Shown here: positions 6,672-63,175 of the stretch, piece after piece | How positions within the stretch are numbered: the stretch's first letter is position 1 | How the letters are laid out: every line of letters starts with the position of its first letter | From: Fimbriimonadales bacterium | Lineage (GTDB): Bacteria > Armatimonadota > Fimbriimonadia > Fimbriimonadales > JABRVX01 | Assembly (NCBI GenBank): GCA_045862955.1 | Contig: BTVI01000009.1 | Location: forward strand, 34,814-98,813 | Reading direction: 5' to 3' | DNA length: 64,000 nucleotides | The notes under the pieces: model-generated | Seen by the model: the letters and a program-made list of their open reading frames with translations, nothing else | Database searches by the model: none | What the model was told of the DNA's origin: nothing | Translations under genes and position numbers: made by a program

Positions 6672-6918
6672 GCCCGCGAGTCGTGGGAGGTAGCGAGCGG
6701 CACCTCTGACCATCGCATTCGTGGAGCGATCCTGGGCCGCCAGTGCGTCACAAGGCTGCTGCGTTCCAAGAGAGAGTGCTTGTTGGGCGTCGAGCGCCGT
6801 CGGAGCTGGAACCGTCGTCTTGCCAGCCTTCCAAGTCCCCTCTGCCGACCGAGCAGTCGTTCCTGGAGCCGGGCCGTCGCTGCGCCTAAGAACACCGTCT
6901 TCGGGCGCCCTCCCGGGT

Positions 6919-7006
6919 GCCGGTGGAGGAAAGAACCAGAAAAGCACAAGTGGGTCGGTGCTGGCGTCTCCGTAGAGGGGGGCCGGTGGAGGAAAAAATC
7001 AGAAAA
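6919..7006 (+). repeat. 25-bp direct repeat pair upstream of the cas operon
   Basis: GCCGGTGGAGGAAAGAACCAGAAAA (6919-6943) and GCCGGTGGAGGAAAAAATCAGAAAA (6982-7006); 23/25 identical, 63-bp period. Confidence 0.7.
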
Positions 7007-7124
7007 CCGCAGGAGGGGACGAGAAGGAATCGGCGAGCGAACGTCGAAAGGTATCGCCATAGATGTATCGGTGTCCCGAGCATGGGCTAGGGTCACGCGA
7101 TTTGCATTCGGAGGGAGTAGGCTA

Positions 7125-8444
7125 ATGCGAAGAGTAGCTTCCGCACCTAGCTTCAGTATCGTTCCGCCCGAACGAAAGGCAATCTGGGAGGGCGAGATCC
7201 ACGTCGTCACGCCGATGTTCGGTGGGTCGGCGACGGCCGGCCAAGTGGACCCCGGGCGCCCCGTGAATGCGAAGATGGTTCGCGGCCACCTGCGCTTCTG
7301 GTGGCGGGCCTGCCGGGCGGCTCAATTCGAGAGCGCGAAGGATCTGTTCGACGCCGAAGCCGCACTTTGGGGCTCGACGGAGACGCCGTCGGCCCTAGAC
7401 CTGGTGCTCGAAGTGCGTTCCTCCGGCAACAGCCGAGCCTGTGCGCGTTACGAGAAGAGGCCCGATGGCACTTACAAATCGCTGCCTGCCTTCGCATCAG
7501 GCTATCCGCCGTACGCACTGTTCCCATTTCAAGGCAAGGCAGAAAGGACCACGATACAAATTCAGCCGGCTGAAGCACTCGAGGGTGTTCGATTTAGCCT
7601 CCGAATCCTTCCCTCGCAAAGCATCAGAAGTGACGCTCTCGACGGCGTTGCTGACGGGGTTCTAGCGGCGTTGTGGGCATGGCTGCTGTTCGGCGGCGTG
7701 GGTGCGAGGACCCGCCGGGGTTGTGGCAGCCTGTACACCAACGGCTGGCCCTTCGAAGGTCTGCAAGCCAATGCCCTCGAGGCGATCTCGAAGCTCAAGT
7801 CTGAGTTTCTCCATTCTGGAGCCCGCTCCCTGCCGATACCAGCGCTGTGTGGAGCAGGCTTGCTGGTCGGGACGCAACTGCAAGGCCACCTCGACGCTTG
7901 GAGCGCTGCAGTGAACACGATGCGCGACTTTCGACAGTCCGTTGGCTTCGCGAGAAATCGTGGTCAGCAACACAATCGTCCTGGTCGCAGTCGCTGGCCA
8001 GAGGCGGATAGTATCCGCGAGTATGCTCATGTTGCAGCGCCCGGGCATCGTCCCAGTCATCCGGCACGTCCTTTCTTCCCGCGCGCGGATCTGGGCATGC
8101 CGATCGTGTTTCACTTCCAAAGCCGCGAAGACCCGTCGGACTACATCGTGGGGCCGAAGGAAGATGGCAAGCAGCGCATGGCCTCCCCTATCATCCTCAA
8201 ACCGCTCGCAGTTTCCGTCAAAGCCGCCTACCCGATCGCGCTACTACTAAATGCCCCTCATGTTTGGGACCGAGAGGCCCCGAAGCCTTACGCGAACAAC
8301 AAACCGCTGGGACATAGCGAGCTCGCGGATGGTAGCAAAGTCGCGAAGGTACCGCCTCTGACTGACATGGGTAACAAGAACGCCCGCGATGCGTTCATGG
8401 CCTTCTTCAAGCAAAAGACCAACGCAAAGGAGGTGAAGCTGTGA
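7125..8444 (+). CDS. cmr1: Type III-B RAMP protein Cmr1
   Basis: 'VVTPMFGG', 'VRGHLRFWWRA', 'FGGVGARTRRGCGSL', 'PRADLGMPIVFHF', 'RMASPIILKP'; ATG 7125 follows GGAG. Confidence 0.92.
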   Translation: MRRVASAPSFSIVPPERKAIWEGEIHVVTPMFGGSATAGQVDPGRPVNAKMVRGHLRFWWRACRAAQFESAKDLFDAEAALWGSTETPSALDLVLEVRSSGNSRACARYEKRPDGTYKSLPAFASGYPPYALFPFQGKAERTTIQIQPAEALEGVRFSLRILPSQSIRSDALDGVADGVLAALWAWLLFGGVGARTRRGCGSLYTNGWPFEGLQANALEAISKLKSEFLHSGARSLPIPALCGAGLLVGTQLQGHLDAWSAAVNTMRDFRQSVGFARNRGQQHNRPGRSRWPEADSIREYAHVAAPGHRPSHPARPFFPRADLGMPIVFHFQSREDPSDYIVGPKEDGKQRMASPIILKPLAVSVKAAYPIALLLNAPHVWDREAPKPYANNKPLGHSELADGSKVAKVPPLTDMGNKNARDAFMAFFKQKTNAKEVKL

Positions 8445-10231
8445 GCTACTTGTTCGCGGTATCGCTGGGTCCGGTACAGGGCTTCATCCAAGCGGCTCGA
8501 AAGACGCGGGACCTTTGGTATGGCTCCGAGATGCTGAGCGAGATGTCACGCGAGGTGGCGAAGATGCTGCGTGACCGTGGCGCCGAGCTGATCTTCCCCT
8601 CGCCACAAGCGCTAGAGATGGACCACAGCGGTGCACAGCCAACGGGGAGTCGGCAGCCTGCAATCGCCAACAAGATACTGGTGGAGGTGAGCACGAACCC
8701 CCAGCCACTGGCAGAAGCCGTCGGGCAGGTGGTAAGCGAGTTCCTCGATAAGCAGCGGAATGCCGCAGTGGCGAAGGCGAAGGGTCACCTCGAGGGCGTA
8801 CTGAAAGAAGAGCCAATGGGCTCGCAGGTAGCTGCCTTCCCTGAGGTGTACTGCGCATGGTGGCCGATGAACGGAGACTACGAGTGCGCTCGCTTGGAGG
8901 TGGACCGGCTGCTAGCAGGGCGCAAAGCCCTTCGCGATTTCGCACCGAACAACGGCATCGCAGGTCGCCCTAAGTCTTCCCTAGATGGAGCCCTCGAGTC
9001 GGTCACGTACGATACGTCGAAGTTTGACCCTGTCAGGCTAAGGGCGATCGGCTTGAGGCCGGGCGAGGAGTTGGATGGCGTATCGCTGATCAAGCGTGTG
9101 AATGCAGGCGAACGCTTCGTGTCCGTGTCCAGAGTGGCTGTGGACCCGTTCGTGCGCCATCTGAAAGAGAACAAGCCTGACGTGCTCAACGCACTCTGCG
9201 ACAGCGCGCAGACACTGACGGGTACCGACTGGGTGCAAAGATTCAAGGCGGAAGGACGGCTCAAACACTACGATGCCTTTCCATACGACACCCAACTCTT
9301 CTACGGTCCGCCGACCAAACTGGAAGCGAGCGAGGCCCCGGAGCTTGCACCGCAAGCAGAGAACTTCTACAAGATTGCCTCCGGCGCCGGCTCGCCGCCC
9401 CTGTACTACGCGGTGCTGCAGGGTGACGGCGACCGAATGGGAAAGGTACTCGGAAGCCTCGGGGTCAAGGAGAAGCATCAGGAGTTCTCTTCCAAGCTTG
9501 TGGATTTCGCATCTGCGGCGGCCGACATCGTCGCGAATCACCACGGCGCACTGGTCTACAGCGGTGGCGATGACGTATTGGCCTTCTTGCCCCTCGACCA
9601 AGCGCTCGAGTGCGCGGATGAGCTTCAGAGAGAGTTTCGCCGCGTTCTGAGTGCATTCGAGGGTGCGACATTCACCTGCGGCATAGCAATCTGCCACTAC
9701 TCCGAACACCTACAGAACGCGCTGCGCTGGGCGAGAGATGCCGAAAGAGCCGGCAAGAAAGTTCGTAACGCCATCGGCATCCACCTTCATACACGTACCG
9801 CTGGCGAGGAGAAGGTGGAAGTAGTGGACGAGTGGGGAGAGGACCCGGCAGTCCAGAATGCCGAAGGCGCGAGAAAGCATGGTGCCACCGTCAGCCGTCT
9901 GCTGGAGTGGGTGAACCTCTTGCGCGAAGACCGCATCCCGGACGGTGCCATCTTTCAGTTACGGGCTCTACATCGTGAGTTTCGTGATAGCGGAGTAACC
10001 GAAGTGGAAGTTCTTCAGAAGGAGGCGATGCGCATCATCGGGAGAAAGCGCGCCGAGAAGGGCACTAAGCCGCTAGACGAAGAAGACAAGAAGCGGATCG
10101 AGAACAGTATGTTCTCCCAGCCAATCGGCGATTTGAACGCAGCTCTCGATAGCGTCGACCGCTTCGTCAACGAGATGATCATCGCCCGCCATATCGCAAG
10201 AGCGAAAGACGTGGTGGAGAAAGGAGCGTAG
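8441..10231 (+). CDS. cmr2: Type III-B Cas10/Cmr2, HD domain absent, cyclase motifs intact
   Basis: Starts directly at 'SLGPVQGFIQAARKTRDLWYGS'; 'LQGDGDRMG' and 'YSGGDDVLA'. Confidence 0.95.
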   Translation: MSYLFAVSLGPVQGFIQAARKTRDLWYGSEMLSEMSREVAKMLRDRGAELIFPSPQALEMDHSGAQPTGSRQPAIANKILVEVSTNPQPLAEAVGQVVSEFLDKQRNAAVAKAKGHLEGVLKEEPMGSQVAAFPEVYCAWWPMNGDYECARLEVDRLLAGRKALRDFAPNNGIAGRPKSSLDGALESVTYDTSKFDPVRLRAIGLRPGEELDGVSLIKRVNAGERFVSVSRVAVDPFVRHLKENKPDVLNALCDSAQTLTGTDWVQRFKAEGRLKHYDAFPYDTQLFYGPPTKLEASEAPELAPQAENFYKIASGAGSPPLYYAVLQGDGDRMGKVLGSLGVKEKHQEFSSKLVDFASAAADIVANHHGALVYSGGDDVLAFLPLDQALECADELQREFRRVLSAFEGATFTCGIAICHYSEHLQNALRWARDAERAGKKVRNAIGIHLHTRTAGEEKVEVVDEWGEDPAVQNAEGARKHGATVSRLLEWVNLLREDRIPDGAIFQLRALHREFRDSGVTEVEVLQKEAMRIIGRKRAEKGTKPLDEEDKKRIENSMFSQPIGDLNAALDSVDRFVNEMIIARHIARAKDVVEKGA

Positions 10232-10233
10232 CC

Positions 10234-11436
10234 ATGGATACTACCTATCTCATCGAACCGAGAGATCCGATCCTCGCGCGGGATGCCAGGCCGTTCTCGG
10301 CCCAGCCAGGTGCGTTCGCACAGAGCCTGCCTTGGCCGCTACCTTCCACTACCACGGGTGCCATCCGCACCTATCTTGGCGGAGACTGGAGTCAGAACCC
10401 CGCAGAGAAGGCGGCCCAGATGCTACACGTATCCGTCCACGGCCCGCTATTGGTTGCTAAGAGGGAGGGCGGACAGTGGCAGGTGTATTATCCAGCTCCG
10501 GCAGACGCTGTTATCTATGATACGCAGGCAGAGGGCGCTGTGGGTGATCCTAATAGGAAGCCGAAGAAGGTGATGAACCTTCTCCCCCTTCCGCGGCTGC
10601 CGGAGGGTGCGGGCTGCAATCTGCCGGATGGACTACTACCAGTTTGTGTTACCGAAGACGTCAAGCCATCGCCGGAGTTCGCTTTCTGGTCGCACGAGTA
10701 CACCACGGCCCAATTAGCTAGCTCAACTCCCGGAGAGGATCCGCCTACCGAGGGCATCAAGGACTTGCCCAAGGACTCCCGAGTGCACGTGAGCATAAAC
10801 CCGGAAACGAAGACGGGTGTCGAAGGACGCCTCTTCGCTACGACCTCGCTAGTCTTCCCTGACGGACCCCTTGTCGACAGAGGCACCAAGGTCGGCTGGC
10901 AAGAGATCGGTATGATATGCAAGGTTGTAGGAGCTCCCAACGGCATCGCTCGCCGATTGCAGCCTCTCGCCGGCGAAAAGCGCCTCGCCTACATCACTCC
11001 TGGAGACGGACTCTGGCCCACGATCCCAAAGGAGCTCGTCGAGGCCTGTTCTAGCAGCACGAAGTTGAAGCTCCAGTTGGTTACCCCTGCCATCTTCGAG
11101 CATGGATGGAAGCCAGGATGGTTGAAAGATGGCTTGTTAGGCACGCCGCCTGGGCTGGACGGAATTAGCCTAAAGTTGGTATCGGCTGCGGTACCCCGAC
11201 GCGGCGCAGTGAGCGGGTGGGATTACAAGGCGAAGGGCCCGAAGCCCTCGCGATTCCTCGCTCCCGCCGGCAGCGTCTACTTCTTCGAAGTCGCGAGTGG
11301 AAGCCTAACAGAACAGGTAGTTCGTTCTCTTTGGCTTTCCTCGGTTTCTGATAGCGAGCAAGACCGCCGCGACGGTTTCGGCCTCGCGATACCTGGAATA
11401 TGGGATTACTATAAGGAGGATACGAGTGGACAGTAG
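10234..11436 (+). CDS. cmr3: Type III-B Cmr3 (Cas5 family)
   Basis: 'IEPRDPILARDARPF', 'LPWPLPST', 'LAGEKR', 'LVTPAIF', 'PAGSVYFF', 'DGFGLA'. Confidence 0.93.
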   Translation: MDTTYLIEPRDPILARDARPFSAQPGAFAQSLPWPLPSTTTGAIRTYLGGDWSQNPAEKAAQMLHVSVHGPLLVAKREGGQWQVYYPAPADAVIYDTQAEGAVGDPNRKPKKVMNLLPLPRLPEGAGCNLPDGLLPVCVTEDVKPSPEFAFWSHEYTTAQLASSTPGEDPPTEGIKDLPKDSRVHVSINPETKTGVEGRLFATTSLVFPDGPLVDRGTKVGWQEIGMICKVVGAPNGIARRLQPLAGEKRLAYITPGDGLWPTIPKELVEACSSSTKLKLQLVTPAIFEHGWKPGWLKDGLLGTPPGLDGISLKLVSAAVPRRGAVSGWDYKAKGPKPSRFLAPAGSVYFFEVASGSLTEQVVRSLWLSSVSDSEQDRRDGFGLAIPGIWDYYKEDTSGQ

Positions 11437-12391
11437 AATACTCTTCATCCACGGCCTGAGCCCCATTCATTCGGGGACCGGTCAGGCCGTCGACGTGATT
11501 GACCTGCCGATCGCACGCGAGAGGACCACCGGCTGGCCCTACCTCCCCGGCTCGAGCATCAAAGGCGTCCTCCGCGATGCATGCAGACTAGCTATGTTAG
11601 AGGACCTCAAAGGGACGGACGGACAAGTCCAGCACTCGGACGAACAATCCGCCGAGGGGGTAGCCAAGAGCTCCGAGGAAAAGCTCCAACTGCATGGAGA
11701 CTACCGCCTCTACAAAGAAGCCTTCGGCCCTGAGGACAAGCCGGAGGAGCATGCAGGAGCACTCGCCTTCGGTGATGCGCGCATCCTCTGCATGCCCGTG
11801 CGCTCCTTCGCTGGCACCTTCGCCTGGACCACCTGCCCAATGGTGCTAAAGAGGGTCCAGCGCGACGACATGAATGCGGGTCTCGGGGAGATGCCGGAGC
11901 TTACTGAGACGCTAAGCTACGAGGAGGGGGCGGTCGCTCGAGACTCGGTTGTGGTCCATCGAGGCAAGGTATACCTGGAAGATCTCGACGTGTCAATCAA
12001 GACAGGTGCGGACGCAGCAGACCTAGCAGACATGCTGAGTGCCGAGCTGTTCGGCGAGTCGGACTGGCAGCAGGCCTTCCGCGAGCGATTCGTAGTGGTC
12101 TCCGACGACCTGTTCAGCTACCTCTGTGAGACGACTACGGAGATTACGGCTAGGGTCAGGTTGCGGCGAGATACTAAGACCGTAGCTACGGGTGCGTTGT
12201 GGTACGAGGAGGCGCTACCCACTGAGTCGATACTGTATTCTCCTCTCATCGCCAACCCCAGGCCTCCCGTAACCCCCGTGGAGCTGTTCAACTTCATCTC
12301 TCCCAAGTTGGATCGGCCGGTGCAGATAGGCGGTAATGCCAGCGTCGGCCGCGGGCTGGCCACATTCAGGCTTCGAGGTGAGCGGTCATGA
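11426..12391 (+). CDS. cmr4: Type III-B Cmr4 (Cas7 backbone endoribonuclease)
   Basis: 'SPIHSGTGQAVDVIDLPIARE' (catalytic Asp retained), 'PGSSIKGVLR', 'LWYEEALP', 'QIGGNASVGRG'. Confidence 0.95.
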   Translation: MDSRILFIHGLSPIHSGTGQAVDVIDLPIARERTTGWPYLPGSSIKGVLRDACRLAMLEDLKGTDGQVQHSDEQSAEGVAKSSEEKLQLHGDYRLYKEAFGPEDKPEEHAGALAFGDARILCMPVRSFAGTFAWTTCPMVLKRVQRDDMNAGLGEMPELTETLSYEEGAVARDSVVVHRGKVYLEDLDVSIKTGADAADLADMLSAELFGESDWQQAFRERFVVVSDDLFSYLCETTTEITARVRLRRDTKTVATGALWYEEALPTESILYSPLIANPRPPVTPVELFNFISPKLDRPVQIGGNASVGRGLATFRLRGERS

Positions 12392-12813
12392 CGAGGCGGC
12401 AAGAATACATGGCGCAAGCGCTAAGAAATGTTCGGGAGGTGGAAAAGCTTTCTGAAAAGCTTTCTGGCCGGATACCCAAGATTTACGGGGGTCTTTGCCA
12501 TAAGCTCCCTGTTCTCGTCAGAGCGTGCGGTCTATGCCAGACTGTAGCTTTCCTGGAGGCAAAGTCCGAGTCGAAAGACAGAGAGCGCGCGGAGGCCTAT
12601 CTGAGGATGTGCGGCCACGTGAAGGAGATGCTCGAGAAGCATGGTGGTGTCAAGGTCGCTGCTCAGACTCTCTCCGAGGCTGTTGCCGGGCTTGAGATCA
12701 GAGAGTACTCATTTGCTACGCGTTGCATCCTACAGGCATGGGTTTTCTACAAGAGATTTGCAGAGTCGATCCTCAAGGTTGCTAACGCCCAGGAGGACGA
12801 GCATGGCAGCTAG
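12388..12813 (+). CDS. cmr5: Type III-B small subunit Cmr5 (Cas11)
   Basis: 141 aa; 'LPVLVRACGLCQTVAFL', 'FYKRFAES'; lies between cmr4 and cmr6. Confidence 0.9.
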   Translation: MTRRQEYMAQALRNVREVEKLSEKLSGRIPKIYGGLCHKLPVLVRACGLCQTVAFLEAKSESKDRERAEAYLRMCGHVKEMLEKHGGVKVAAQTLSEAVAGLEIREYSFATRCILQAWVFYKRFAESILKVANAQEDEHGS

Positions 12814-13924
12814 CTTCGTGGCGTCTCGCCGAGGTCTTGCAGCCGTGCAAGATGGTGCTGTCAGAGACAACCCAGGCCTGGCACTCGAGAGATCACTCTC
12901 GTTGCTCGGTGACGACATGGCGGCCCGCGAAAGCGAGCAACGCTTACGGGACAAAATAACAGAACCGATGCCGGCGGAGCTTGCCCTCTTGTACCTCAAG
13001 GCCTATAAGCGCTGGCGGAGCTGCCTAAACTCCTTGCCAGGGCCTGTTCTCACGCGAGAGGTGCGCACCCTGGACCGTGTCATCGTCGGACTCGGCAGTG
13101 AGAGCGTGTTGGAGACCTCCATCACCCTCAACCGTATCTATGGCGTGCCCATCCTCCCCGGCTCAGCACTGAAAGGTGTCGCTAGGTCCTATTATGAGAA
13201 CGAGCTCAGACCTGCCGACCCCGAAGAACGCAAAAAGCACCGGGAGACGGGTGACGACCTCTTCGGCTGGGAGGCCAAGGAGGGTGAGCAGGGCAAAGAA
13301 AAGGAAGAAGCCAAGTCCGGCTGCGTCACCTTCTTCGATGCATGGTACATACCAGGCTCCACCAAAGACGACAAGCCCCTACGACCAGACGTCATCACCG
13401 TGCACCACCCGGCATACTACCAGAACTCCGGACAAGAGCCCCCTACGGACTTCGACGATCCGACTCCCGTCGGCTTCATCAGCGCTCGTGGCTCGTTCCT
13501 TCTCGCAGTGCAGGGCCCGGACGAGCAGTGGACGAACCTCGCCATGGAGGTCCTCACCCGAGCACTCGCGCACTACGGAGTCGGCGGAAAGACCTCCAGC
13601 GGATACGGTCGTCTCGTCCCCAGCACTACCGCGCAGGGTCCAAGCAGCCAGAGCACTACCGACCGTCCCCAGCCAGCACCGGACCCGCTTTCTGACCCGG
13701 AGGTGGAGCAGGTGAAGACCACCCCGCCCAACCAAGTCAGGAGCCGCATCGCTAACTGGCTCCAGAAGTTCAACCAACGTTGCAAAACCGACGTCGGCAA
13801 GGCTCGGGCACTGGCGGAGGCCATAAGAGAGAGAGTGGAGGCGAGTGGCATAGCGGATCAGCTCGGCATGGACCAACGCAACTATCGCATGATGATCGAG
13901 TGGTTGGAGGCTCAGGGGAAGTAA
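12803..13924 (+). CDS. cmr6: Type III-B Cmr6 with C-terminal extension
   Basis: 'RVIVGLGSESVLETSITL..IYGVPILPGSALKG', 'DVITVHHPAYY', 'PTDFDDPTPVGF', 'GVGGKTSSGYG'; AGGAGG RBS before ATG 12803. Confidence 0.93.
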   Translation: MAASFVASRRGLAAVQDGAVRDNPGLALERSLSLLGDDMAARESEQRLRDKITEPMPAELALLYLKAYKRWRSCLNSLPGPVLTREVRTLDRVIVGLGSESVLETSITLNRIYGVPILPGSALKGVARSYYENELRPADPEERKKHRETGDDLFGWEAKEGEQGKEKEEAKSGCVTFFDAWYIPGSTKDDKPLRPDVITVHHPAYYQNSGQEPPTDFDDPTPVGFISARGSFLLAVQGPDEQWTNLAMEVLTRALAHYGVGGKTSSGYGRLVPSTTAQGPSSQSTTDRPQPAPDPLSDPEVEQVKTTPPNQVRSRIANWLQKFNQRCKTDVGKARALAEAIRERVEASGIADQLGMDQRNYRMMIEWLEAQGK

Positions 13925-13934
13925 GTGAACGGCC

Positions 13935-14858
13935 ATGATGTATCCTACTCCCGTAGGCTGTCTGAATCTAGACATACCGGTGCCTGATCCCGCCGACGCA
14001 CTAGATCTCACCACTCTGGATGTTATCATGCAGGTGGGCGAGAAGCCACTGCGTTTCGTCAACTTCCCAGGCCTTGCGTGGCGATCCGTCTTCGGCTATG
14101 CGCTGAGAACGCTTACGTGCTTATCCGCAAACGACTCTGCTTGTGAGCAAGCCTGCGCCCACCCAAAGCTCTGTCTCTACGGTCGCATCTTCAGCCCACC
14201 TCGTATCGAAGAACCGGCTCGAGGATTCCAGGACCCTCCTCGCCCGTACGTGGTGCAGCTTCCCAAGCCAAAGCATGGAATGGGGCAACCTTTCACGCGG
14301 TACGACCTGCGTATCAACCTGATCGGTCCCGCAACGCATGCTGTTGAGGCTGTCGTTGCCGCACTCCGCCTAGCGTGCGAAAGGGGCATCGGGCCGGACC
14401 GAGCTAGGCTAAGCGTAATCCAAGATGTTCGAACGAGCTGGAGCCGGCCGGAATGCGACCTCGATACCGAAAGCATCACCCTAGAGTTCGTGACACCTAC
14501 ACAACTCCGCGTGGGTGGTAGCCTCGTTACTTCGCCAGAGTTCTCCTACATCGTCCGGGGAATCCTTCGAAGGGTTATCCCACTGTCTGAGCTGTACGGC
14601 ACACCGCTGGAAGTCTCGGCCGACCGACTGATCGCGGCTGCTCACGACGTGAAAATCGATCGCGCGAATATCGCTTGGTACGACATCGAGAGAAAGACCC
14701 GAAGGCCAGACAAGAAAATGGTACTAGACGGCTTCGCTGGCACCGTCCGCTACGTCGGCGATATCGGACAATTCCTGCCGTGGTTGTACCTGGGCTCGGC
14801 TCTCAACGTCGGAAAGCATGCTACCTTCGGCATGGGACACTTCGAGGTGCACCCGTGA
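13935..14858 (+). CDS. cas6: crRNA-processing endoribonuclease Cas6
   Basis: C-terminal G-loop 'LNVGKHATFGMGHF', 'LEFVTPTQLR', 'PRPYVV', Cys cluster 'C..C..CLY'. Confidence 0.9.
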   Translation: MMYPTPVGCLNLDIPVPDPADALDLTTLDVIMQVGEKPLRFVNFPGLAWRSVFGYALRTLTCLSANDSACEQACAHPKLCLYGRIFSPPRIEEPARGFQDPPRPYVVQLPKPKHGMGQPFTRYDLRINLIGPATHAVEAVVAALRLACERGIGPDRARLSVIQDVRTSWSRPECDLDTESITLEFVTPTQLRVGGSLVTSPEFSYIVRGILRRVIPLSELYGTPLEVSADRLIAAAHDVKIDRANIAWYDIERKTRRPDKKMVLDGFAGTVRYVGDIGQFLPWLYLGSALNVGKHATFGMGHFEVHP

Positions 14859-16309
14859 GCGACACGGTATTCGCACTCGGTCTCTCTGGATTGCAGGACT
14901 TCGTGTATGACGTAGAAGCGGAGGATGCAGCGCGCAGACTGCGCATACGCTCAGCCATACTAACGCTCGCGCCAGCTCTCGTCGCATCTCGGTTGCGGCA
15001 GCTGACACAGCCAGGACTCGAACCCTACTACCTGGGTGGAGGCCAGTTACTGACGTCATGCTCATCCCAGGCTCTATCCCAGATCGAACCGGAGTTGCGC
15101 AGTCTCCAAGAGTGGCTACTCGTGCATTCCGCTGGGCGCATCCTACTGTACTGGACATCAGTACCTCGCTCGGACGATGTCAAAAATGATCTGCAAGAAA
15201 TCATCCGCGCAGTCCTCCGAGCAAAATGGCAAAGTGGTAGGCATCAATCCGAGTGGTTGGCTCACGCTTCACGGTTGGACCCACTCGACCCGAAGCGAGG
15301 AGCGCTGGGAGATCCGCAGTGGGAAGCAGACATCGGTAGGGAACTAGTGCGGGCCGGCGGCTTCACTGGCTTCCGGCTGGTCAATGGCGGTGACGGGTGG
15401 CCCGTGGGCCCATGGATGGTCCAGCCGGTGTCCGATGGCGAGTCTGACATTCGTATCCAGCAAGGTGCAGACGACCTCGGCATCGTCATCGGCCTCCCGA
15501 CACATGTTCCCACCTACCAGACCGGAGATATCATTCCCTTCGACCAGATGGCAGCCCAGGGAACCGGTGCGAGCTACCTCGCAGCGCTCAAGTTGGACGG
15601 TGACCACATGGGCAAGAGCATGGCAGCAGCTCTGGCCCAAAGCGCCGATGAGTATCTGAGTCGTAGCCGAGCCGTGCGTGCGTTTTTCGCCGTCACGGTG
15701 CCCAGGCTCTTTCGCGACGAGTTTCCCAACGTGTATCTCATCTACTCCGGCGGAGACGACCTAGCAGCCGTCGGCCACTTCCACGATCTGCTCAGAGCCG
15801 CATACCGAATAAACCAAGAGTACTCCCAGCAAGGGCTAGGCACTCTATCGGCCGGGATCACAGCGTTTCACCGTAAGTCTCCAGTACGCTTGGCCATGGA
15901 CGTCGCGAACAATCTGCTCGAAGGGCACGCCAAGAAAGACAGAAATCGAGTGTGCGTCTTCGGCGAGACACTCACCTGGGACCAACTCGATGTTGTCATA
16001 CGAGAGGCAGAGGTGTTGGCCCAGTCCGTCGAGCAGGAACCGGACGGCCTGCCGCGAGGCATGCTACAGCTACTTATGCAGCTAGACTCGCTTTACACGT
16101 CGCAGATTGACTGGCTGAAGAAAGTTCGCTTTCGTGCATTTCCACTGATCCAGTACTTCCGAGCACGCCGCCTAAAAGCAGAGGGACTCTCTACGGAAGC
16201 CGCTACGATATTCTACAACCTGGAGGGTGGACACGACCCCACTTGGAATCGTATCGGACTGGTGGCTCTGCTCGCAGCATGGCTAACTAAGCCACAGGAG
16301 AACGAATAA
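14855..16309 (+). CDS. cas10: Compact Cas10/Csm1 (484 aa; no HD domain; Palm DGD and GGDD intact)
   Basis: GTG start overlaps the cas6 stop; 'LSGLQDFVY..ARRLRIRS', 'YLGGGQ', 'LKLDGDHMG', 'IYSGGDDL', 'TLSAGI'. Confidence 0.88.
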   Translation: MSDTVFALGLSGLQDFVYDVEAEDAARRLRIRSAILTLAPALVASRLRQLTQPGLEPYYLGGGQLLTSCSSQALSQIEPELRSLQEWLLVHSAGRILLYWTSVPRSDDVKNDLQEIIRAVLRAKWQSGRHQSEWLAHASRLDPLDPKRGALGDPQWEADIGRELVRAGGFTGFRLVNGGDGWPVGPWMVQPVSDGESDIRIQQGADDLGIVIGLPTHVPTYQTGDIIPFDQMAAQGTGASYLAALKLDGDHMGKSMAAALAQSADEYLSRSRAVRAFFAVTVPRLFRDEFPNVYLIYSGGDDLAAVGHFHDLLRAAYRINQEYSQQGLGTLSAGITAFHRKSPVRLAMDVANNLLEGHAKKDRNRVCVFGETLTWDQLDVVIREAEVLAQSVEQEPDGLPRGMLQLLMQLDSLYTSQIDWLKKVRFRAFPLIQYFRARRLKAEGLSTEAATIFYNLEGGHDPTWNRIGLVALLAAWLTKPQENE

Positions 16310-16761
16310 TGAACTCGATGAGGAAAGCCTTCCAACAAGCCGGGGTCGGCGGAGGTGGTCCCCAAGGGGAAAGGCCTCGCTTAGACCATCAAAAGATGAC
16401 GGAGTACTACGATCAAGACGGCTGCATCCGCAGAGAGGTATACGTAGACTGGCCGAAGGAGATAGTAAGGGCTTTGTCCGAAGCCAGAGTCACGCGTAGT
16501 CGGCTGCGAAAGCTCTATGAACAAGTACTGGCGACCAAGGCGCGCCTAAGACTGGGTCACGAGAGTGACACCCAAGTTCTCCGATCTGGACTACTGCAGC
16601 TGCGCCGCGCCGCCGAACATCTCGGTGCCAGACAACCACCTCTACCACGTGTCGCAGTGGACTTCGTCGTCATTCATACGGATCGTGTTCGTGAAGACCC
16701 GAAGCTCTTCATCGGCTTCTTCGAGCTATTCCAAAGTGTCTACGCGTACATGCCGCGATAG
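16309..16761 (+). CDS. csm2: Type III-A small subunit Csm2
   Basis: 'VTRSRLRKLYEQV' and 'FFELFQSVYAY' match the Csm2 pattern; directly after cas10. Confidence 0.85.
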   Translation: MNSMRKAFQQAGVGGGGPQGERPRLDHQKMTEYYDQDGCIRREVYVDWPKEIVRALSEARVTRSRLRKLYEQVLATKARLRLGHESDTQVLRSGLLQLRRAAEHLGARQPPLPRVAVDFVVIHTDRVREDPKLFIGFFELFQSVYAYMPR

Positions 16762-16773
16762 GAGGTAAGTAGA

Positions 16774-17505
16774 ATGCCATCTCATCTCAGCCACTACGTC
16801 GCCCTCAACGCGCGAATGAAAGTTCTCAACGGCCTCAGAGTTGGATCCGGAGCCGAGACCATGGAGATCGGTGCCCTAGACAATCCTATCATCCGACACC
16901 CGTTCTCCAGGCAACCGTATATCCCTGGTTCGTCGCTAAAGGGCAAACTGCGCTCCCTCTTGGAGATCAAAGGCATCACGACTACCAATCACCCGGCCAA
17001 GCCGCAACGCAGACAAGGCCCTTGCGGATGCGGGAAGTGCGTTGTATGCTGGTTGTTCGGCTCCGGCGACGTGCGCAACACCGCTGAGCCCACACGTCTG
17101 ATCTTCCGAGATGCCTTCCTAACTGCCCAGCATCGTGATAAGCTGAGCAGCCTGCTGGAGCAAGGCGTCCTTTATAGCGAAACCAAGTCCGAAGTCGTCA
17201 TGGACCGCGTCACCGGCAAGGTTGCCAGTGTGGGCCCGCGCACCATGGATCGCATCATGGCAGGCACCGAGCTCGACTTGTGCATCTCGATCCGCGTCTT
17301 CGAGGGTGATGATGTCGAAGAAATCAAAGAAGTCCTCATCGCCGCTCTCAAGATGCTGCATCGAGACACCCTAGGCGGCTCTGGCACCCGAGGCTACGGA
17401 TGGGTGGGCTTCCCGAAGGTAGTGTTCGGAAGCGAAGACATCACTTCCGAGATTCACACCCCCGAAGAGCTCGAGAGAATGAGCCAAATTAGTCTCGATA
17501 AGTGA
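16774..17505 (+). CDS. csm3: Type III-A Csm3 (Cas7 backbone endoribonuclease)
   Basis: 'GLRVGSG..EIGALDNPIIR' (catalytic Asp), 'PYIPGSSLKGKLRSLLE', Zn cluster 'CGCGKCVVC', 'LGGSGTRGYG'. Confidence 0.93.
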   Translation: MPSHLSHYVALNARMKVLNGLRVGSGAETMEIGALDNPIIRHPFSRQPYIPGSSLKGKLRSLLEIKGITTTNHPAKPQRRQGPCGCGKCVVCWLFGSGDVRNTAEPTRLIFRDAFLTAQHRDKLSSLLEQGVLYSETKSEVVMDRVTGKVASVGPRTMDRIMAGTELDLCISIRVFEGDDVEEIKEVLIAALKMLHRDTLGGSGTRGYGWVGFPKVVFGSEDITSEIHTPEELERMSQISLDK

Positions 17506-18377
17506 TGAACTGGTACGAAGTCCAAATCACGCCGCTCGCGCCATTCCGCACCCCGTGGCGTAACGATACCATCTGGGGACGCCTCACATGGGCCGTCGCC
17601 CAAGAGGCTATCGCCTCCTGGAATATCCATCGCTGGCTCCAGGCCTACCGCGACGGAAACCCTCCGCTGGTGGTTGCCGACGGATTTCCTAGGACCGGCT
17701 TTCCCCTGCCCGCAGCATGGCACACCCTACCAACGAAGGACGATCACAAACCACCCGAGGTCATAACTTTCGAGGAGCTAACACGCCTCTCCAAAGGCAA
17801 CGGCCACCCCATCGAGAGCGGGCAGCCCCTAAGACCTTCTTCGCGACTACATGTCTCTCTCTCCCGAAGCACCGGCTGCGCAGTAGACGGAAGTCTCTAC
17901 GTGGCAGATGCATACCTGCCTCCAGAAGACGTGCCCATCAGCGTCGTCACGCTGCTAGATCACGGCCTGACTCCTAGAGACCTCGAGGCCCTGTGGCAGC
18001 ATGTGGCCAGCGAAGGCTGGGGCAAAGGGCGCTCGACTGGCTATGGTGCATTTCGGTTAGACGGCGTGACACCTCTCGAGCCGCCGGCGCAAGACGCAAA
18101 CGGCTTCGTCACACTGGGACACATCATACCAAACGATGACCTACCACTCGATGGTCTGTGGCGATGGAGCGGCATCAAGACGGTCCCACACGATCCCGAT
18201 ACCGGTCTCACGATGTTCCCTCCGCTGTTTTCTGTCGCACTCAGACCAGGAGCTTGTTTTCGAGAAAAACCCCCACGCCAGTGGACCGGACGAATGCTCC
18301 TTCACCCACTAGAGGGACATCCCAACTACACACGATATGGACTCGCCCCAGCGTGGCCTATCACCTGGCCGGACTAG
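17502..18377 (+). CDS. csm4: Type III-A Csm4 (Cas5 family)
   Basis: 'TPWRNDTIWGRL', 'PLVVADGFP', 'GWGKGRSTGYGAF', 'LRPGACF', 'RYGLA'. Confidence 0.85.
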   Translation: MMNWYEVQITPLAPFRTPWRNDTIWGRLTWAVAQEAIASWNIHRWLQAYRDGNPPLVVADGFPRTGFPLPAAWHTLPTKDDHKPPEVITFEELTRLSKGNGHPIESGQPLRPSSRLHVSLSRSTGCAVDGSLYVADAYLPPEDVPISVVTLLDHGLTPRDLEALWQHVASEGWGKGRSTGYGAFRLDGVTPLEPPAQDANGFVTLGHIIPNDDLPLDGLWRWSGIKTVPHDPDTGLTMFPPLFSVALRPGACFREKPPRQWTGRMLLHPLEGHPNYTRYGLAPAWPITWPD

Positions 18378-18443
18378 CTCCACCACATCGCGCACATTGA
18401 CAAGCACATAACGATCTCGCCAGAGGCCAATTCCTAGCAATCG

Positions 18444-18469
18444 GGGGTCGGGCGGCCCCGCCCGACCCC
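18444..18469 (+). terminator. GC-rich hairpin between csm4 and cas1 (possible terminator or processing stem)
   Basis: GGGGTCGGGCG-gccc-CGCCCGACCCC, 11-bp perfect stem; no clear U-tract. Confidence 0.5.
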
Positions 18470-18492
18470 ACCTTAGCCAGATCGGTTCCAAG

Positions 18493-19482
18493 ATGATTCT
18501 CATAGCAGACGAACTAGGAGCACGAATCAAATACGCTCAAGGCCAACTCCTCATCCATGATAAAGATGACAACGTCCTAACTAAAGCCGAGCTCATCCAC
18601 GTCGAAGAGGTCGTCCTCGTCGGCGCAGTGGGTATCTCCGGACCAGCCATCGAAGCTATCGTCGCTAACGGAATAGACCTCTATTACATCGCATACGACG
18701 GCGAGCCCGCAGCACGACTCGTCCCCGATGGTTCTACCTATGCCGAGCTCAGACTCGCACAGTACAGAGCCACGAACGATGACAAGCAGAAGCTCTACTA
18801 CGCCAAGGCATTCGTGGGAGCAAAACTCGCCAATCAGAAGATACTGCTCCAACGCGCCTTTCGTACCTGGCACCAAGAGCACAGCCTCGAACCACTCGAT
18901 CGCGCAATCCAACAGATAGATGGCGCGCCAGACATCGCAACCCTTATGGGTATCGAGGGCGCAGCTGCACAAGCCTACTTCACCCTCATCGGACACATCA
19001 TCCCGCCCGAATGGGGCTTCCGAGGCCGAAAGCGACGCCCGCCACCGGACCCCGTCAACGCAATGCTCTCCTTCGGATATACTTACGTGGGTAACCTCGT
19101 CACGAGAGCCGCTCGAGCCGCACGACTCGATATATACCTTGGCCTGCTCCACGCAGAAAGAGAAGGCAGACCGTCCCTCCCCCTCGACCTGCTCGAGGAG
19201 TTTCGACCATTTACGGCAGACGCAACCATGCTCCGCATCGTACGGCAGAAAATGCTGAAGCCTACCGACTTCGAAACCACGCCAGATGGCGGATGCCGAA
19301 TGTCAGAACCCGCGCGAGCCGAGTTCATCCAGACACTCGAAAACCGCCTCGCCGACGAGTTCACTCACCCTACCAAAAGGCAGCGTTGCAACTTTCGACA
19401 AGCCATGCTGATACAAGCAAGAGAACTCGCACATTCGCTGCTCGCCGATAAGCCCACCTACCAAGCACTGGTGCTACGATGA
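18493..19482 (+). CDS. cas1: CRISPR-associated endonuclease Cas1
   Basis: 'LMGIEGAAAQAYF', 'RRPPPDPVNAMLSFGY', 'GLLH', 'LDLLEEFRP'. Confidence 0.96.
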   Translation: MILIADELGARIKYAQGQLLIHDKDDNVLTKAELIHVEEVVLVGAVGISGPAIEAIVANGIDLYYIAYDGEPAARLVPDGSTYAELRLAQYRATNDDKQKLYYAKAFVGAKLANQKILLQRAFRTWHQEHSLEPLDRAIQQIDGAPDIATLMGIEGAAAQAYFTLIGHIIPPEWGFRGRKRRPPPDPVNAMLSFGYTYVGNLVTRAARAARLDIYLGLLHAEREGRPSLPLDLLEEFRPFTADATMLRIVRQKMLKPTDFETTPDGGCRMSEPARAEFIQTLENRLADEFTHPTKRQRCNFRQAMLIQARELAHSLLADKPTYQALVLR

Positions 19483-19769
19483 AACCAGGAACGCAGTTCG
19501 TGCTACTCTGCTACGACATCGTAGACAATAAACGCCGAGCCAAACTCCAAAAGGTAGCAGACGCTTTCGGCGAACGCGTCAACGACTCGGTATACGAGTG
19601 CTGGCTGAACCCTACCCAAGAGGCCTCGCTCGTCAAGAAAGTCAAACGATTAGTGAACGAGCGCGAAGATGCGGTCTACTTCTACCGCCTCTGCGCCGCA
19701 TGCCTCCAAAGAAAGTCCTCTATCGGACTTCACGTTGAAACGCAACCCGAAAGGGTCCGAATCGTGTAA
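19479..19769 (+). CDS. cas2: CRISPR-associated protein Cas2
   Basis: 'LLCYDIVDNKRR', 'GERVNDSVYEC'; 96 aa; overlaps the cas1 stop. Confidence 0.95.
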   Translation: MKPGTQFVLLCYDIVDNKRRAKLQKVADAFGERVNDSVYECWLNPTQEASLVKKVKRLVNEREDAVYFYRLCAACLQRKSSIGLHVETQPERVRIV

Positions 19770-20149
19770 CAATAGGGGGAGTCTAGGCCGTGCGCCGAAA
19801 CCCCTCATTGCGGTCTGCGGGACTCTTCGGCCCCTGCCTAGTTGAACCTGGCTTGCCGAAGAGTCCCGCAGAATCGACCACTTTTGAGAGTCTTTTTATG
19901 TACGGATTGCAACGAAAAGGACCTGGTATAGGTCTTCGACCTCTCGGACCGGGACTCGACTGGGCCAAAATCTGGCTTCGAATCGGCGCGAATCCCCTAG
20001 TCCTCTTGGTAAGCTCTACTTCCTTTTGGCCCGATTTGCGGGACTCTCCCCCCTTTTCGAGCTGTTTTGAGAGTCCCGCACCGGTTCAAAGGTTGACTTC
20101 TCACCACTTTTTGGGGAAGAATCGAACCTGGATGGGGCAAAGAGATGCG
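19770..20149 (+). promoter_or_regulatory. CRISPR leader 1 with two inverted-repeat pairs and a putative sigma70 promoter
   Basis: TGCGGGACTCT/AGAGTCCCGCA pairs at 19816/19860 and 20037/20070; TTGACT-N18-AAGAAT near the repeat; homologous to the leader at 63440-63782. Confidence 0.8.
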
Positions 20150-23100
20150 GTCGCAGCAACCTCCCCGCTAACAAGGGGACTGAAACGTTAATAGTACAAC
20201 CCCATAACTCTAAGGCTTTCTAATTATAACGTCGCAGCAACCTCCCCGCTAACAAGGGGACTGAAACGTCCGATTCGAAGCCATCGGACTGCGCAATCGA
20301 GAGTACGTCGTCGCAGCAACCTCCCCGCTAACAAGGGGACTGAAACAGGCTCGACGGGGAACTTGTCGTCTTGCCAGATGTACGTCGCAGCAACCTCCCC
20401 GCTAACAAGGGGACTGAAACTCCAAACACGACATAGGTCAGACTGATTCCTACCGAATTGATGAAGTCGCAGCAACCTCCCCGCTAACAAGGGGACTGAA
20501 ACGCACCTGACGGTGGGCGGTTACGGCCGATCGCCAGTCCGAGTCGCAGCAACCTCCCCGCTAACAAGGGGACTGAAACGCCAGCAGCTCGGCCCGGAGC
20601 TTCTCTAACATGTGTCTTCTGTCGCAGCAACCTCCCCGCTAACAAGGGGACTGAAACTTCTGATTCTCCTTCAGGATTGTCGTGATGACGTTGTCAAGGG
20701 TTGCGTCGCAGCAACCTCCCCGCTAACAAGGGGACTGAAACGCGGTGTTACAGGAGGACTGGGACGGCCAGGAGTTTTTGGAGTCGCAGCAACCTCCCCG
20801 CTAACAAGGGGACTGAAACGCACACCGCGTCTCCGCCAAAGCCGTGTCCCATGTTGGTTACGTCGCAGCAACCTCCCCGCTAACAAGGGGACTGAAACCG
20901 CGATAATCCTGCAAACCACTTGCAGAACCGATTCGCCAACGTCGCAGCAACCTCCCCGCTAACAAGGGGACTGAAACGAGGGGTGGTTCTTCAAGTCACG
21001 TGACGAGTGGGCTGAAGAGACCGGTATGAGTCGCAGCAACCTCCCCGCTAACAAGGGGACTGAAACAGGGACCGTGCCATCCGTGGTTGCGTACACGGTT
21101 GCGTGTCGCAGCAACCTCCCCGCTAACAAGGGGACTGAAACTTCTGGCGGTCAATCCCGGAAAGGCGGCTAAGGTCAGGGTCGCAGCAACCTCCCCGCTA
21201 ACAAGGGGACTGAAACCGACTGCACGCTGCCGTGGTTCAGGATCCCCAGCAGGTTGGGCGCGGGTCGCAGCAACCTCCCCGCTAACAAGGGGACTGAAAC
21301 CAAGAAGGGGCACGCGCGAGGCTGCGCAAGCTTGGCGTGCTGGTCGCAGCAACCTCCCCGCTAACAAGGGGACTGAAACGCGTGCTACCCAGTAGGACCT
21401 ATCAGCGAGCGGGCCGTTAGGTATCGGGTCGCAGCAACCTCCCCGCTAACAAGGGGACTGAAACAACAACGTTGGAACTGGCTTAGGACGTTGACGTCCT
21501 AGACTTGTCGCAGCAACCTCCCCGCTAACAAGGGGACTGAAACGGCGAAGTAGGCCTCGAAGTAGTGGAGGCATGCCTCCGGGTCGCAGCAACCTCCCCG
21601 CTAACAAGGGGACTGAAACAAAACTTGGAGACGGTATGTTTAGTATCCTAATCAATTCGTCGCAGCAACCTCCCCGCTAACAAGGGGACTGAAACATAAA
21701 GTGTCCGAGTTCCTCCAAAACAGCTAGCGCGGCCTCCTCGTCGCAGCAACCTCCCCGCTAACAAGGGGACTGAAACAACGCATCGTGGATTTTCTTGACA
21801 ACAACCGCAGGCAGAAAGTCGCAGCAACCTCCCCGCTAACAAGGGGACTGAAACTGGAGGAGCTAGGGCGACTTTGGACGGCCCCGCTGGATCGTCGCAG
21901 CAACCTCCCCGCTAACAAGGGGACTGAAACGGGAGCTCGAGGGAGCTCGCGCGGGAGCTCGCGCGGGGGGAGCGTCGCAGCAACCTCCCCGCTAACAAGG
22001 GGACTGAAACGTAGCACGTACCGTCTACGACCTTGCGGCCGCAGCCGGGTCGCAGCAACCTCCCCGCTAACAAGGGGACTGAAACCTCGTTCGCCTTGGC
22101 GAGGGCGCTGTCGGCCTGAGCCTTAAGGGTCGCAGCAACCTCCCCGCTAACAAGGGGACTGAAACAACCTAGCTACTAGCCGCTCGAAGTCGTGGCCCTT
22201 GCGCCTATTGGGTCGCAGCAACCTCCCCGCTAACAAGGGGACTGAAACTCACGGACGCCCCACCTTCCTGCCCCCGGCGGGCCCACCGTCGCAGCAACCT
22301 CCCCGCTAACAAGGGGACTGAAACGTAGCGCGGTCCCACCACAGGGAGTGGGCGAGCCGTCCAACGGTGTCGCAGCAACCTCCCCGCTAACAAGGGGACT
22401 GAAACTATCCGTATGTGATCACGGCGTGCCCGGATGGAGAGGGGTCATGTCGCAGCAACCTCCCCGCTAACAAGGGGACTGAAACGGCTGCTTGAGCTTA
22501 AGCTCAAGCTAGCCGCCCTAGGCGTGAACCCGGGTCGCAGCAACCTCCCCGCTAACAAGGGGACTGAAACGTTCCACAGGTGCTTTGTGACGATTACTGG
22601 CTCAGTTACAGCTGTCGCAGCAACCTCCCCGCTAACAAGGGGACTGAAACCCATCCTTTTGGTGTGCCGCCTCGCCCCCGGCGCAGGCGATGGGGGTCGC
22701 AGCAACCTCCCCGCTAACAAGGGGACTGAAACCTCTTGCTAGGTATGCCATGCCAAACAGTATCGCCGCAGGTCGCAGCAACCTCCCCGCTAACAAGGGG
22801 ACTGAAACTTAGGCCGTTCCGCCAGCGGCGGTAGAGGACCTCCTCGTACATAAAGTGGTCGCAGCAACCTCCCCGCTAACAAGGGGACTGAAACCAACTC
22901 CCGTAGTTCTGCCGGCGCTAATCCCTTCACACTGTCCGTCGCAGCAACCTCCCCGCTAACAAGGGGACTGAAACGGGGCGGCGTGGAGTACCACTCCGCG
23001 TGGAGACTGGTGGACGTGTCGCAGCAACCTCCCCGCTAACAAGGGGACTGAAACGCATGCGCGCGCGATGACACAAGGACGCACGAGAATGCGTCGCAGC

Positions 23101-23286
23101 AACCTCCCCGCTAACAAGGGGACTGAAACAAATCTGCCGAAACCTCTTCTATCGGCGGATATTATGATCTTGGTCGCAGCAACCTCCCCGCTAACAAGGG
23201 GACTGAAACATTGACCGAACGCCTGCCAACACGGCCTATTGTTTGGACCGTCGCAGCAACCTCCCCGCTAACAAGGGGACTAGAAC
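20150..23286 (+). CRISPR. CRISPR array 1: 40 repeats of 37 bp, 39 spacers of 37-52 bp
   Basis: Repeat GTCGCAGCAACCTCCCCGCTAACAAGGGGACTGAAAC counted by eye; last copy (23250) ends ACTAGAAC; orientation from leader position and GAAAC 3' end. Confidence 0.98.
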
Positions 23287-23335
23287 TATATACACCATGC
23301 AGCGCTGCACTAACTAACAGTGGGGGTTGTAGGCG

Positions 23336-25759: not shown

Positions 25760-26165
25760 TCCTTATAAGGCCGGGCGGGGGTCCACTGTGTGGTGGCCCG
25801 GGCCCGGTAAAGCGCTCATGGTAACGATCCTCATCAAGAGTAATAACGGAGAGGTCGCGGCCTAGCTTTACCATAGGGGAAAGAGGTAGAGAACGAACCT
25901 CTTCGTCGGGGGCTGTCTTAACCCGGTAGTTCCCTGTGTGCGTTTAACACCTCCGGCTACTTGGGTACATGGTAAGTTGGTTTATGAGGCGCCGCCGCAG
26001 GCGGAAGATGGTCTGCAGGCGCTGCAAGACGACAGTGTTCTTCTCGTTCAACGGGATATGCCTCTACTGTAAGGCCGTCATTCCGATGGAGCCCGAACTG
26101 CAAGAAAGTCGCACTGGCCACCCCACTAACAACGCATCTTGACTCGGATCCTAGGAAGGGTTTTT

Positions 26166-26548: not shown

Positions 26549-26553
26549 TCACT

Positions 26554-31892: not shown

Positions 31893-31893
31893 G

Positions 31894-34568: not shown

Positions 34569-34629
34569 CGTTTCCCCCTTGTTATCCAGTCCTAGATTGT
34601 GTGTCGTCTTGCCACCTGCAAACGCCCGC

Positions 34630-63098: not shown

Positions 63099-63175
63099 CT
63101 GAAACGGCTCCGTTGCCCCCGGCGATTTCCAAATCGTGCGAGTGTCGATCGCCGGGGGCAACGGAGCCGTTTCAG
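63099..63175 (-). repeat. 28-bp perfect inverted repeat overlapping the terminal repeat of array 2
   Basis: CTGAAACGGCTCCGTTGCCCCCGGCGAT (63099-63126) and its reverse complement (63148-63175). Confidence 0.92.

Follow-up and report, generated by a model that had tools for sequence, protein, structure and literature searches.

How much of a type III CRISPR complex can be lost while signalling is kept? The question is raised by a locus in a 64,000-nucleotide stretch of DNA from a Fimbriimonadales bacterium (contig BTVI01000009.1, positions 34,814–98,813; hereafter the window), where a cas10 gene encoding only 484 residues is followed by csm2, csm3 and csm4 and then by cas1, with neither an HD nuclease domain nor csm5. 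In accounts of signalling type III systems, Csm5 or the equivalent Cmr subunit counts as a core component, and the described single-Cas7 systems that we found had lost signalling. As far as sequence permits a judgement, we put at roughly 70% the probability that the four genes encode a III-A-derived complex devoid of Csm5 and of the HD domain and likely dedicated to signalling, which would bind and cut target RNA and make cyclic oligoadenylate (cOA) for CARF effectors. Conservation across phyla, purifying selection, retention of catalytic residues and linkage to CARF genes underlie this reading; they favour the compact signalling-only complex that a first-pass annotation of the window had offered next to a complex borrowing its capping subunit. 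The module is real, selected, rare and apparently undescribed, and its unusual parts are the lineage-wide lack of csm5 and a dedicated Cas6e in relatives. Its clade gives the appearance of a knockout made by nature and kept by selection, in which Csm5 and HD are both lost and signalling remains.

The compact Cas10 and its partners

The cas10 gene (14855–16309; this and all features below are on the plus strand unless stated otherwise) encodes Palm1, a cysteine-free remnant of the zinc-finger region, Palm2 with its DGD and GGDD motifs, and domain D4. Its GTG start, preceded by GAGGTG 5 nt upstream, overlaps the cas6 stop codon (GTGA), and the open frame continues upstream for only 88 codons, wholly within cas6 (572 residues from stop to stop), so that an HD region of about 240 residues cannot fit. 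Residue 1 of the AlphaFold model aligns to residues 231–249 of the solved Csm1 chains, meaning that the entire HD region is missing. The frame, the model and the alignment of relatives thus bear out the first-pass annotation, which had Cas10 starting at Palm1 over the cas6 stop with no room for an HD domain. A TTG codon at 14675 was considered as an upstream start and rejected: it lies within cas6, homologues begin at Palm1, and the 60 extra residues cannot hold an HD domain. A genome-wide check, as had been suggested, revealed no stand-alone Csm1-type HD in the source genome (best score 22 bits against a control median of 157), just generic HD proteins on other contigs.

The protein belongs to the Csm1 family, scoring 179.9 bits with TIGR02578 (Csm1; cut-off 170) and 44.8 bits with TIGR02577 (Cmr2; cut-off 79.4), and the best structure matches of its model (predicted local distance difference test, pLDDT, 73; predicted template modelling score, pTM, 0.63), which is Csm1-like domain by domain, are Csm1. 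The match to PF18182 (mCpol) is marginal (27 versus 26.4 bits), and mCpol is a cyclase domain alone, whereas the compact Cas10 has Palm1, D4 and csm2–csm4 as neighbours. All 12 aligned sequences share the DGD (D248, D250) and GGDD (299–302) motifs without change. Ten ATP- or metal-binding positions, mapped by alignment on the Enterococcus italicus Csm1 site residues named in PMC11734703, are kept: S258, Q261, S280, Y307, K385, D530, S556, Y580, D584 and K648 correspond to S11, Q14, S33, Y59, K124, D248, S271, Y297, D302 and K360 of the window protein, respectively. Relative to full-length relatives, the first CxxC pair is deleted and LGDPQWEAD stands in place of the second, so that, as the annotation had noticed, no CxxC pair is left.

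Losses of this kind are less rare than the annotation implied; it is the lineage-wide lack of csm5 that is unusual. We found 45 other HD-less Csm1-like clusters of 431–579 residues, 21 of them with fewer than two CxxC. By the figures given in PMC11229360, HD is recognisable in 65% of III-A loci and none is seen in 35% of III-A Cas10s, and HD is described as often dispensable in PMC9762709, PMC11040160 and PMC13737744. Note that the survey of PMC11229360 states that Cas10 proteins below 500 residues were excluded as non-functional, a blind spot, since 10 of the 12 compact Cas10s would drop out. A separate HD-less, CxxC-less Csm1 group of 431–485 residues (P0059, P0068, P0071, P0095, P0163, P0167) lies on the csm5-positive side of the tree.

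The three partner genes have intact frames, as first annotated. The csm2 product (16309–16761, 150 residues) begins with a tail rich in G, Q and R, contains the motif YDxxGxIxxE, and matches PF03750 with an E-value of 0.004, below the cut-off; its orthologues (n = 5) fare variably against TIGR01870, two passing (L080, L081), two falling just below the cut-off and one giving no match, and we count the small subunit of III-A as present despite the weak match in the window. The csm3 gene (16774–17505, 243 residues; TIGR02582, 189 bits against a cut-off of 90) encodes the sole Cas7 of the module, with a four-Cys motif and a catalytic Asp36, located by alignment to solved Csm3 and invariant in 10 of 10 sequences. 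It is accompanied, as expected for III-A, by a Csm4 (17502–18377, 291 residues), which is divergent (PADLOC Csm4, E-value 2.6e-38; TIGR01903, 27 bits, below the cut-off of 55). The usual place of csm5 is taken by a 115-bp gap (18378–18492) containing a GC hairpin with an 11-bp stem (18444–18469; z = −2.7, no U-run), after which cas1 and cas2 follow (18493–19769; profile matches), again as annotated.

The absence of csm5, first noted in the window, extends to the source genome, which is 97.6% complete: TIGR01899 gave no match above cut-off, its two sub-threshold matches being on cmr4 and csm3, and a custom Csm5 profile built from 52 sequences (8 of 8 seeds checked were Csm5) gave only motif-length matches of at most 31 bits. 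The genes for repeat-associated mysterious proteins (RAMPs) that score above cut-off there are cmr1, cmr4, cmr6 and csm3 only. TIGR01899 found nothing above cut-off in any of the six genomes carrying the compact module, including the complete chromosome of Fontivita pretiosa. In all nine loci readable past csm4 (the window, L018, L020, L022, L080, L081, L082, L161 and L165), csm4 is followed by cas1 in the window and by a CARF gene in the eight relatives, and never by csm5, which answers in the affirmative the question whether relatives also lack it; L079, L083 and L084 are outside this count because their contigs end too early, and G060 was left out, with just an 85-codon cas10 fragment. With the custom profile, none of five compact loci was positive, against 66 of 83 loci that carry another Cas10 and have 3.5 kb or more of downstream sequence; 51 of these 83 had served to train the profile, which scored in 15 of the remaining 32. 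Csm5 being absent, we file the module as a III-A-derived variant rather than as canonical III-A. No description of a four-gene csm5-less variant was found in the literature searched, and the figures, two supplements and Zenodo data of the 2025 classification could list it.

A small clade within a wider csm5-less lineage

The compact clade comprises 12 Cas10 homologues of 474–513 residues that cover the whole query, and it is monophyletic (Shimodaira–Hasegawa-like approximate likelihood ratio test, SH-aLRT, 99–100). Searched against 1.84 billion representatives, its profile recovered five full-length and two partial clusters, after which scores drop from 582 (full-length) to 180 bits, so the clade has few members and clear limits. 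Those with a name belong to Planctomycetota (F. pretiosa, with a complete chromosome), Hydrogenedentota and Chthonomonadales; F. pretiosa B-254 thereby provides a named strain that carries the module. Neither the same-genus genome G001 nor the same-family genome G002 has a match to the compact Cas10, the clade profile matched one of 400 other genomes of the phylum, and no relatives were found in viral contigs. The ratio of nonsynonymous to synonymous substitution rates (dN/dS) is 0.06–0.28 for four genes compared with L079 and 0.08–0.14 for three genes between L022 and L082, so that all seven gene pairs lie within 0.06–0.28; the relaxed selection that the annotation had named as counter-evidence was not seen. 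Contigs from independent studies cross both junctions of the module (X6, 13000–20178; X9, 14603–19732) with less than 1% difference, indicating that it is not an assembly artefact.

Signalling partners accompany the module: a CARF gene directly follows csm4 in eight of eight relatives. It encodes a TIGR02710 CARF-HEPN protein in seven (by sequence alone in the partial L082 and L165), while an APE2256-family protein is found as an extra in L080 and as the sole effector in L161. The best match of the L161 protein in the PDB is 8phb, which we take to be Cami1. Since Cami1 is reported in PMC11229360 to be activated by cyclic tetra-adenylate (cA4), the messenger of the compact Csm, judged by effector family, is most likely cA4. 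Partner genes of the S-adenosylmethionine-AMP (SAM-AMP) type were not seen in compact-module loci.

The compact clade is not the only Csm group devoid of csm5. Of 17 control loci without Csm5, 12 were read, yielding nine csm5-less Csm loci, two losses in Thermoflexus and one uninformative case. The nine loci have the order cas10-csm2-csm3-csm4-(CARF)-cas1. Their Cas10 is full-length, although in L088 the contig ends within it, and in most of them the HD motif is present; no csm5 was found genome-wide in five genomes of this type (assemblies of unstated completeness). We list as full-length, mostly HD-bearing csm5-less loci L024, L027, L031, L033, L088, L098, L112, L166 and L210, from Planctomycetota and others, together with L029 and L090. 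The Thermoflexus-type losses, L028 (Thermoflexus sp., whose genome has csm5 elsewhere) and L100, are isolated among csm5-positive sister loci.

In Csm3 trees, which are quick trees, the compact clade and the HD-bearing csm5-less group form one branch (support 95 and 94), joined at 82 by L207, L208 and L209, three HD-less loci within type I systems. The modules of L207–L209 sit inside type I-B or I-A-like operons, with cas4 on one side and cas1 on the other, and combine an HD-less Cas10 of 530–567 residues with csm2-csm3-csm4 and an APE2256-type gene, with no csm5 in three of three; they resemble the compact module in this cas10-csm2-csm3-csm4-CARF arrangement and differ in belonging to a separate clade of HD-less Cas10s (500–580 residues), most of which keep the Palm1 aspartate and about half CxxC; none of the three has its own Cas6 next to the module. 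The Cas10 trees agree with this in part only: rooted on Cmr2, the compact clade falls outside all Csm1 and not beside the HD-bearing csm5-less group; without an outgroup, the two group together at 87; and with wider sampling, the sister of the compact clade is another HD-less group (92). An order in which csm5 was lost once and first, and HD repeatedly thereafter, is therefore plausible only.

A YDxxGxLxxE motif is present in Csm2 of six of nine compact and six of 13 HD-bearing csm5-less loci versus none of 51 csm5-positive loci, and nine Csm2 proteins from loci of the full-length csm5-less type were scanned: an N-terminal cold-shock domain occurs in four, a treble-clef zinc domain in two, and in a further two the sequence shows an N-terminus rich in Cys. 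In L029 (Dethiobacter) and L090, the treble-clef domain is combined with two tandem Csm2 domains, and in L033 (11615–12844) a cold-shock domain, a middle part the size of Csm2 and part of Csm3 share a single frame, by fusion or by a sequencing frameshift. One genome, G062 (loci L021, L165 and L166), contains both a compact and an HD-bearing csm5-less module.

A proposed way to finish the guide without Csm5

We propose the following sequence of events. Cas6 would cut the repeat at the base of its hairpin, leaving an 8-nt 5' tag; Csm4 and Cas10 would hold this tag and Csm3 would polymerise along the spacer; trimming nucleases would not be recruited, Csm5 being absent, and the guide would keep its repeat-derived 3' hairpin as the filament end. 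In relatives linked to type I-E, a module-specific Cas6e would probably remain on the hairpin as a Cascade-style cap. Target binding would activate the Palm domains, producing cA4 for TIGR02710 CARF-HEPN and APE2256/Cami1-like proteins, and in the source genome the Csm module would have Cas6, array and effectors in common with an adjacent Cmr complex.

The suggestion that a Cas6 left on the untrimmed 3' hairpin may replace Csm5 comes from six relatives (L018, L020, L022, L080, L081 and L161) in which the operon ends with cas6e and lies beside type I-E arrays with spacers of 31–36 nt (one outlier of 42), cas1e being next in four of the six. These Csm-linked Cas6e (L018, 2887–3528; L020, 13562–14209; L022, 14677–15330; L080, 16104–16760; L081, 14712–15395; L161, 7411–8061) are found only behind the compact Csm module. 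All six fall into a single clade (SH-aLRT 99) that is distinct from the Cascade-linked Cas6e used for comparison, 26 proteins that were the best-scoring matches to a profile of the Csm-linked ones. In L022 and L080 both a Cascade cas6e and a Csm-linked cas6e are present, and a second enzyme for the same repeat points to a job tied to the Csm complex; in G109 (99% complete) the Csm-linked enzyme is the only Cas6e found. In Cascade, Cas6e remains on the 3' hairpin as a cap. A minimal Cas10–Csm3–Csm4 complex of Streptococcus thermophilus reportedly retains activity in the work of Mogila in 2019. According to PMC5389561, Staphylococcus epidermidis complexes without Csm5 still assemble, with a 71-nt untrimmed CRISPR RNA, and PMC10289348 describes Csm5 as stopping filament extension. 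The guide proposed here is likened to that of the type VII complex (Cas7–Cas5–Cas14), whose Cas7–Cas5 part is described in PMC10910872 as holding a guide with both repeat tags. A complex prediction for Csm3 and a Csm-linked Cas6e, run without RNA, scored 0.01 and carries no weight either way.

Retention of Cas6 on the 3' end of the guide is possible, if short of even odds, and we would say the same of a bare 3' hairpin. More tentative still is the picture of a Cascade-like type III effector, namely a four-gene RNA sensor of 1,168 residues in which Cas6 (Cas6e in I-E-linked members) would cap the untrimmed hairpin instead of Csm5, and which would represent the furthest reduction within a csm5-less lineage that is not yet classified, using type I-E, I-B and I-G guide pools, worth a variant or subtype of its own. 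Another possible job of the dedicated Cas6e is hand-over and release. Lineage-wide Csm5 loss together with a dedicated Cas6e allows the completion of type III complexes to be tested directly, and makes testable the length of a filament without a cap, the role of the zinc finger and the Palm1 aspartate in target-triggered activation, and type III activity on I-E guides. The module, 3.5 kb long, would also suit diagnostics as a small RNA sensor based on cOA.

Several observations speak against the signalling complex and its proposed guide. The Palm1 aspartate (E. italicus D256, which binds the donor triphosphate) is absent from 12 of 12 aligned members; 11 of these have a regular motif and show Gly or Ala at its position. 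Long relatives keep the aspartate in 77 of 78 cases, and other short relatives in 33 of 45. The zinc-finger region, part of the anti-tag pocket of Csm1 as described in PMC11734703, is rebuilt. The overall root-mean-square deviation of the model from Csm1 is 16–17 Å, which together with its pTM means that a closed composite active site is not confirmed by the model. The identity of the messenger is read from the effector family alone, and the CARF genes of the window lie 9–14 kb off and are explicable by its Cmr module alone. As for the guide end, the dedicated Cas6e is equally explicable as a releasing, multiple-turnover enzyme, and Csm5 mutants that block maturation are reported to weaken S. 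epidermidis immunity (PMC5389561).

The best surviving alternative, which we regard as rather unlikely, keeps the same active four-subunit signalling complex and differs in the guide: host exonucleases, perhaps recruited by the Csm2 tail, would trim it back to the last Csm3 with no cap, and Cas6 would cut and leave. Consistent with it, the median G/R/Q fraction in the first 30 residues of Csm2 is 0.43 at nine compact loci versus 0.20 at 51 csm5-positive loci (from automatic gene calls, a few of them wrong), the cold-shock or zinc domains of HD-bearing csm5-less relatives occupy the position of the tail, and window spacers vary from 37 to 52 nt as in trimmed systems; however, trimming is described as Csm5-dependent in S. 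epidermidis (PMC5389561), and the separate Cas6e clade accompanying the module would be left unexplained.

It is less likely again that the Palm site makes no cOA, or a different messenger, and that the complex is mainly a Csm3 RNA cutter. The lost Palm1 aspartate and zinc finger would fit such a complex, as would the invariant catalytic aspartate of Csm3, but ten other site residues are kept, every relative readable past csm4 has a CARF gene there, SAM-AMP-type partners are not seen in these loci, and the Cmr2 protein of the window, by its sequence, likewise lacks the Palm1 aspartate.

The borrowed cap proposed by the first-pass annotation fares worse still, and we consider it very improbable. 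A full Cmr module lies next to the compact one in the window, and five of five relative genomes tested have other RAMP genes elsewhere, from which Cmr1, Cmr6 or a III-D Cas7 might be recruited. Yet Csm5 itself was found in none of the six carrier genomes, and the second type III module varies among them, being of the Cmr type in G000 (the source genome), G014, G063 and G109 and a four-RAMP locus in G061; G062 (completeness not given) shows only a second csm5-less Csm and just two Csm3-type RAMPs. In addition, Cmr modules are common in this order anyway, and none lies beside the module in any relative. Finally, a decaying III-A remnant or an assembly artefact, to which the sub-threshold scores of Csm2 and Csm4 and the sporadic csm5 losses of L028 and L100 might point, is scarcely credible given the identical gene set across phyla, the low dN/dS and the independent contigs across the junctions.

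Known systems and the setting of the module

Like canonical III-A Csm (S. epidermidis, S. thermophilus, L. lactis, E. italicus, T. onnurineus), the module has the order cas10-csm2-csm3-csm4, best matches to Csm1, the Palm2 and Csm3 catalytic residues and a CARF-HEPN partner. Unlike it, the module has no HD nuclease on Cas10, no zinc cysteines, no Palm1 aspartate and no Csm5, reads DGD in place of DxDNLG beside its invariant GGDD, has a Cas10 about 270 residues shorter than solved Csm1 chains (756–816 residues), and in six compact relatives uses I-E repeats and Cas6e. Compared with III-B Cmr, it resembles HD-less Cmr2 in its Palm1 start, DGD motif, absent Palm1 aspartate and putative signalling-only logic, but its partners are Csm2, Csm3 and Csm4, whereas Cmr keeps cap subunits; in the window the Cmr1, 3, 4, 5 and 6 set goes with a separate upstream cas10. 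The several Cas7 paralogues and Csx10 of III-D are not found, the module having one Cas7 and a Csm4-type Cas5. Its single Cas7 is a feature of III-F, which we equate with variant VIII-2, and of III-H, with which it also shares one Cas5, a Cas10 and a small subunit; those systems pair an active HD with an inactivated Palm, whereas the compact Cas10 has no HD and an intact GGDD, and its sequences group with Csm1 and Csm3. Variant VIII-2 is described from Thermotoga lettingae and Ferroglobus (PMC3973734), and III-H, in the accounts of PMC10910872 and PMC12669027, has an active HD, a dead polymerase and no cOA effectors left, making it the mirror image of the compact module, which lost HD and keeps GGDD and CARF genes. 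From I-E Cascade and type VII the module differs in its Cas10 cyclase and predicted RNA-cutting Csm3; Cas6 retention, the point of likeness, is proposed only.

Directly upstream of the module, cas6 (13935–14858, 307 residues; PF10040, E-value 4e-16) is the sole Cas6 of its kind found in the genome and is common to the Csm module and a complete III-B module (6780–13924; cmr1-cas10(cmr2)-cmr3-cmr4-cmr5-cmr6, by profiles), about which the first-pass annotation was silent, as it was about the CARF genes downstream. The true start of cmr1 is likely near 7125, and Cmr2, with 596 residues, is likewise HD-less. Downstream, a CRISPR array (20150–23300) of 40–41 repeats of 37 nt, with a 5-bp repeat hairpin and a predicted 8-nt tag ACTGAAAC, has leading spacers that vary among strains; its spacers gave zero matches against 50,697 phage records. 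The ordinary Cas6 and 37-nt repeat are laid out as in HD-bearing relatives, so that the window may show the older context. A type I-E operon, which has a cas6e of its own, lies on contigs C72 and C51 of the source genome together with two arrays of 24 and 26 repeats; no cas3 was found in the assembly, nor a Cas3 HD above cut-off, and, both Cas10 proteins being HD-less, no CRISPR DNase was found in the source genome. RNA-labelled runs contained just short, low-depth contigs, too thin to show transcription.

The CARF genes begin with a TIGR02710 CARF-HEPN effector (27527–28828; 216 bits against a cut-off of 83.9, and PF09670) with an RNNSLMAH motif, a candidate cOA-activated RNase, followed by an APE2256-family CARF protein with a C-terminal extension (28927–29979; ring-nuclease or Cami1-like, by profile matches). 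Convergent with this pair, on the minus strand (29985–32730), are a superfamily 1 helicase (29985–31892) and a CARF-like gene (31894–32730), the CARF match being weak (E-value 6e-4). Between the array and the CARF genes, positions 26163–27055 hold a 199-bp direct repeat and short broken frames, presumably resembling the remnant of an IS1380-type transposase. Further on, a tandem paralogous pair on the minus strand (33244–33708 and 34098–34679) has signal-like N-termini, the second member being without a Pfam match, and a reverse-oriented mini-array (63169–63458) contains four repeats, whose sequence departs from that of the main repeat but retains its 3' hairpin and tag.

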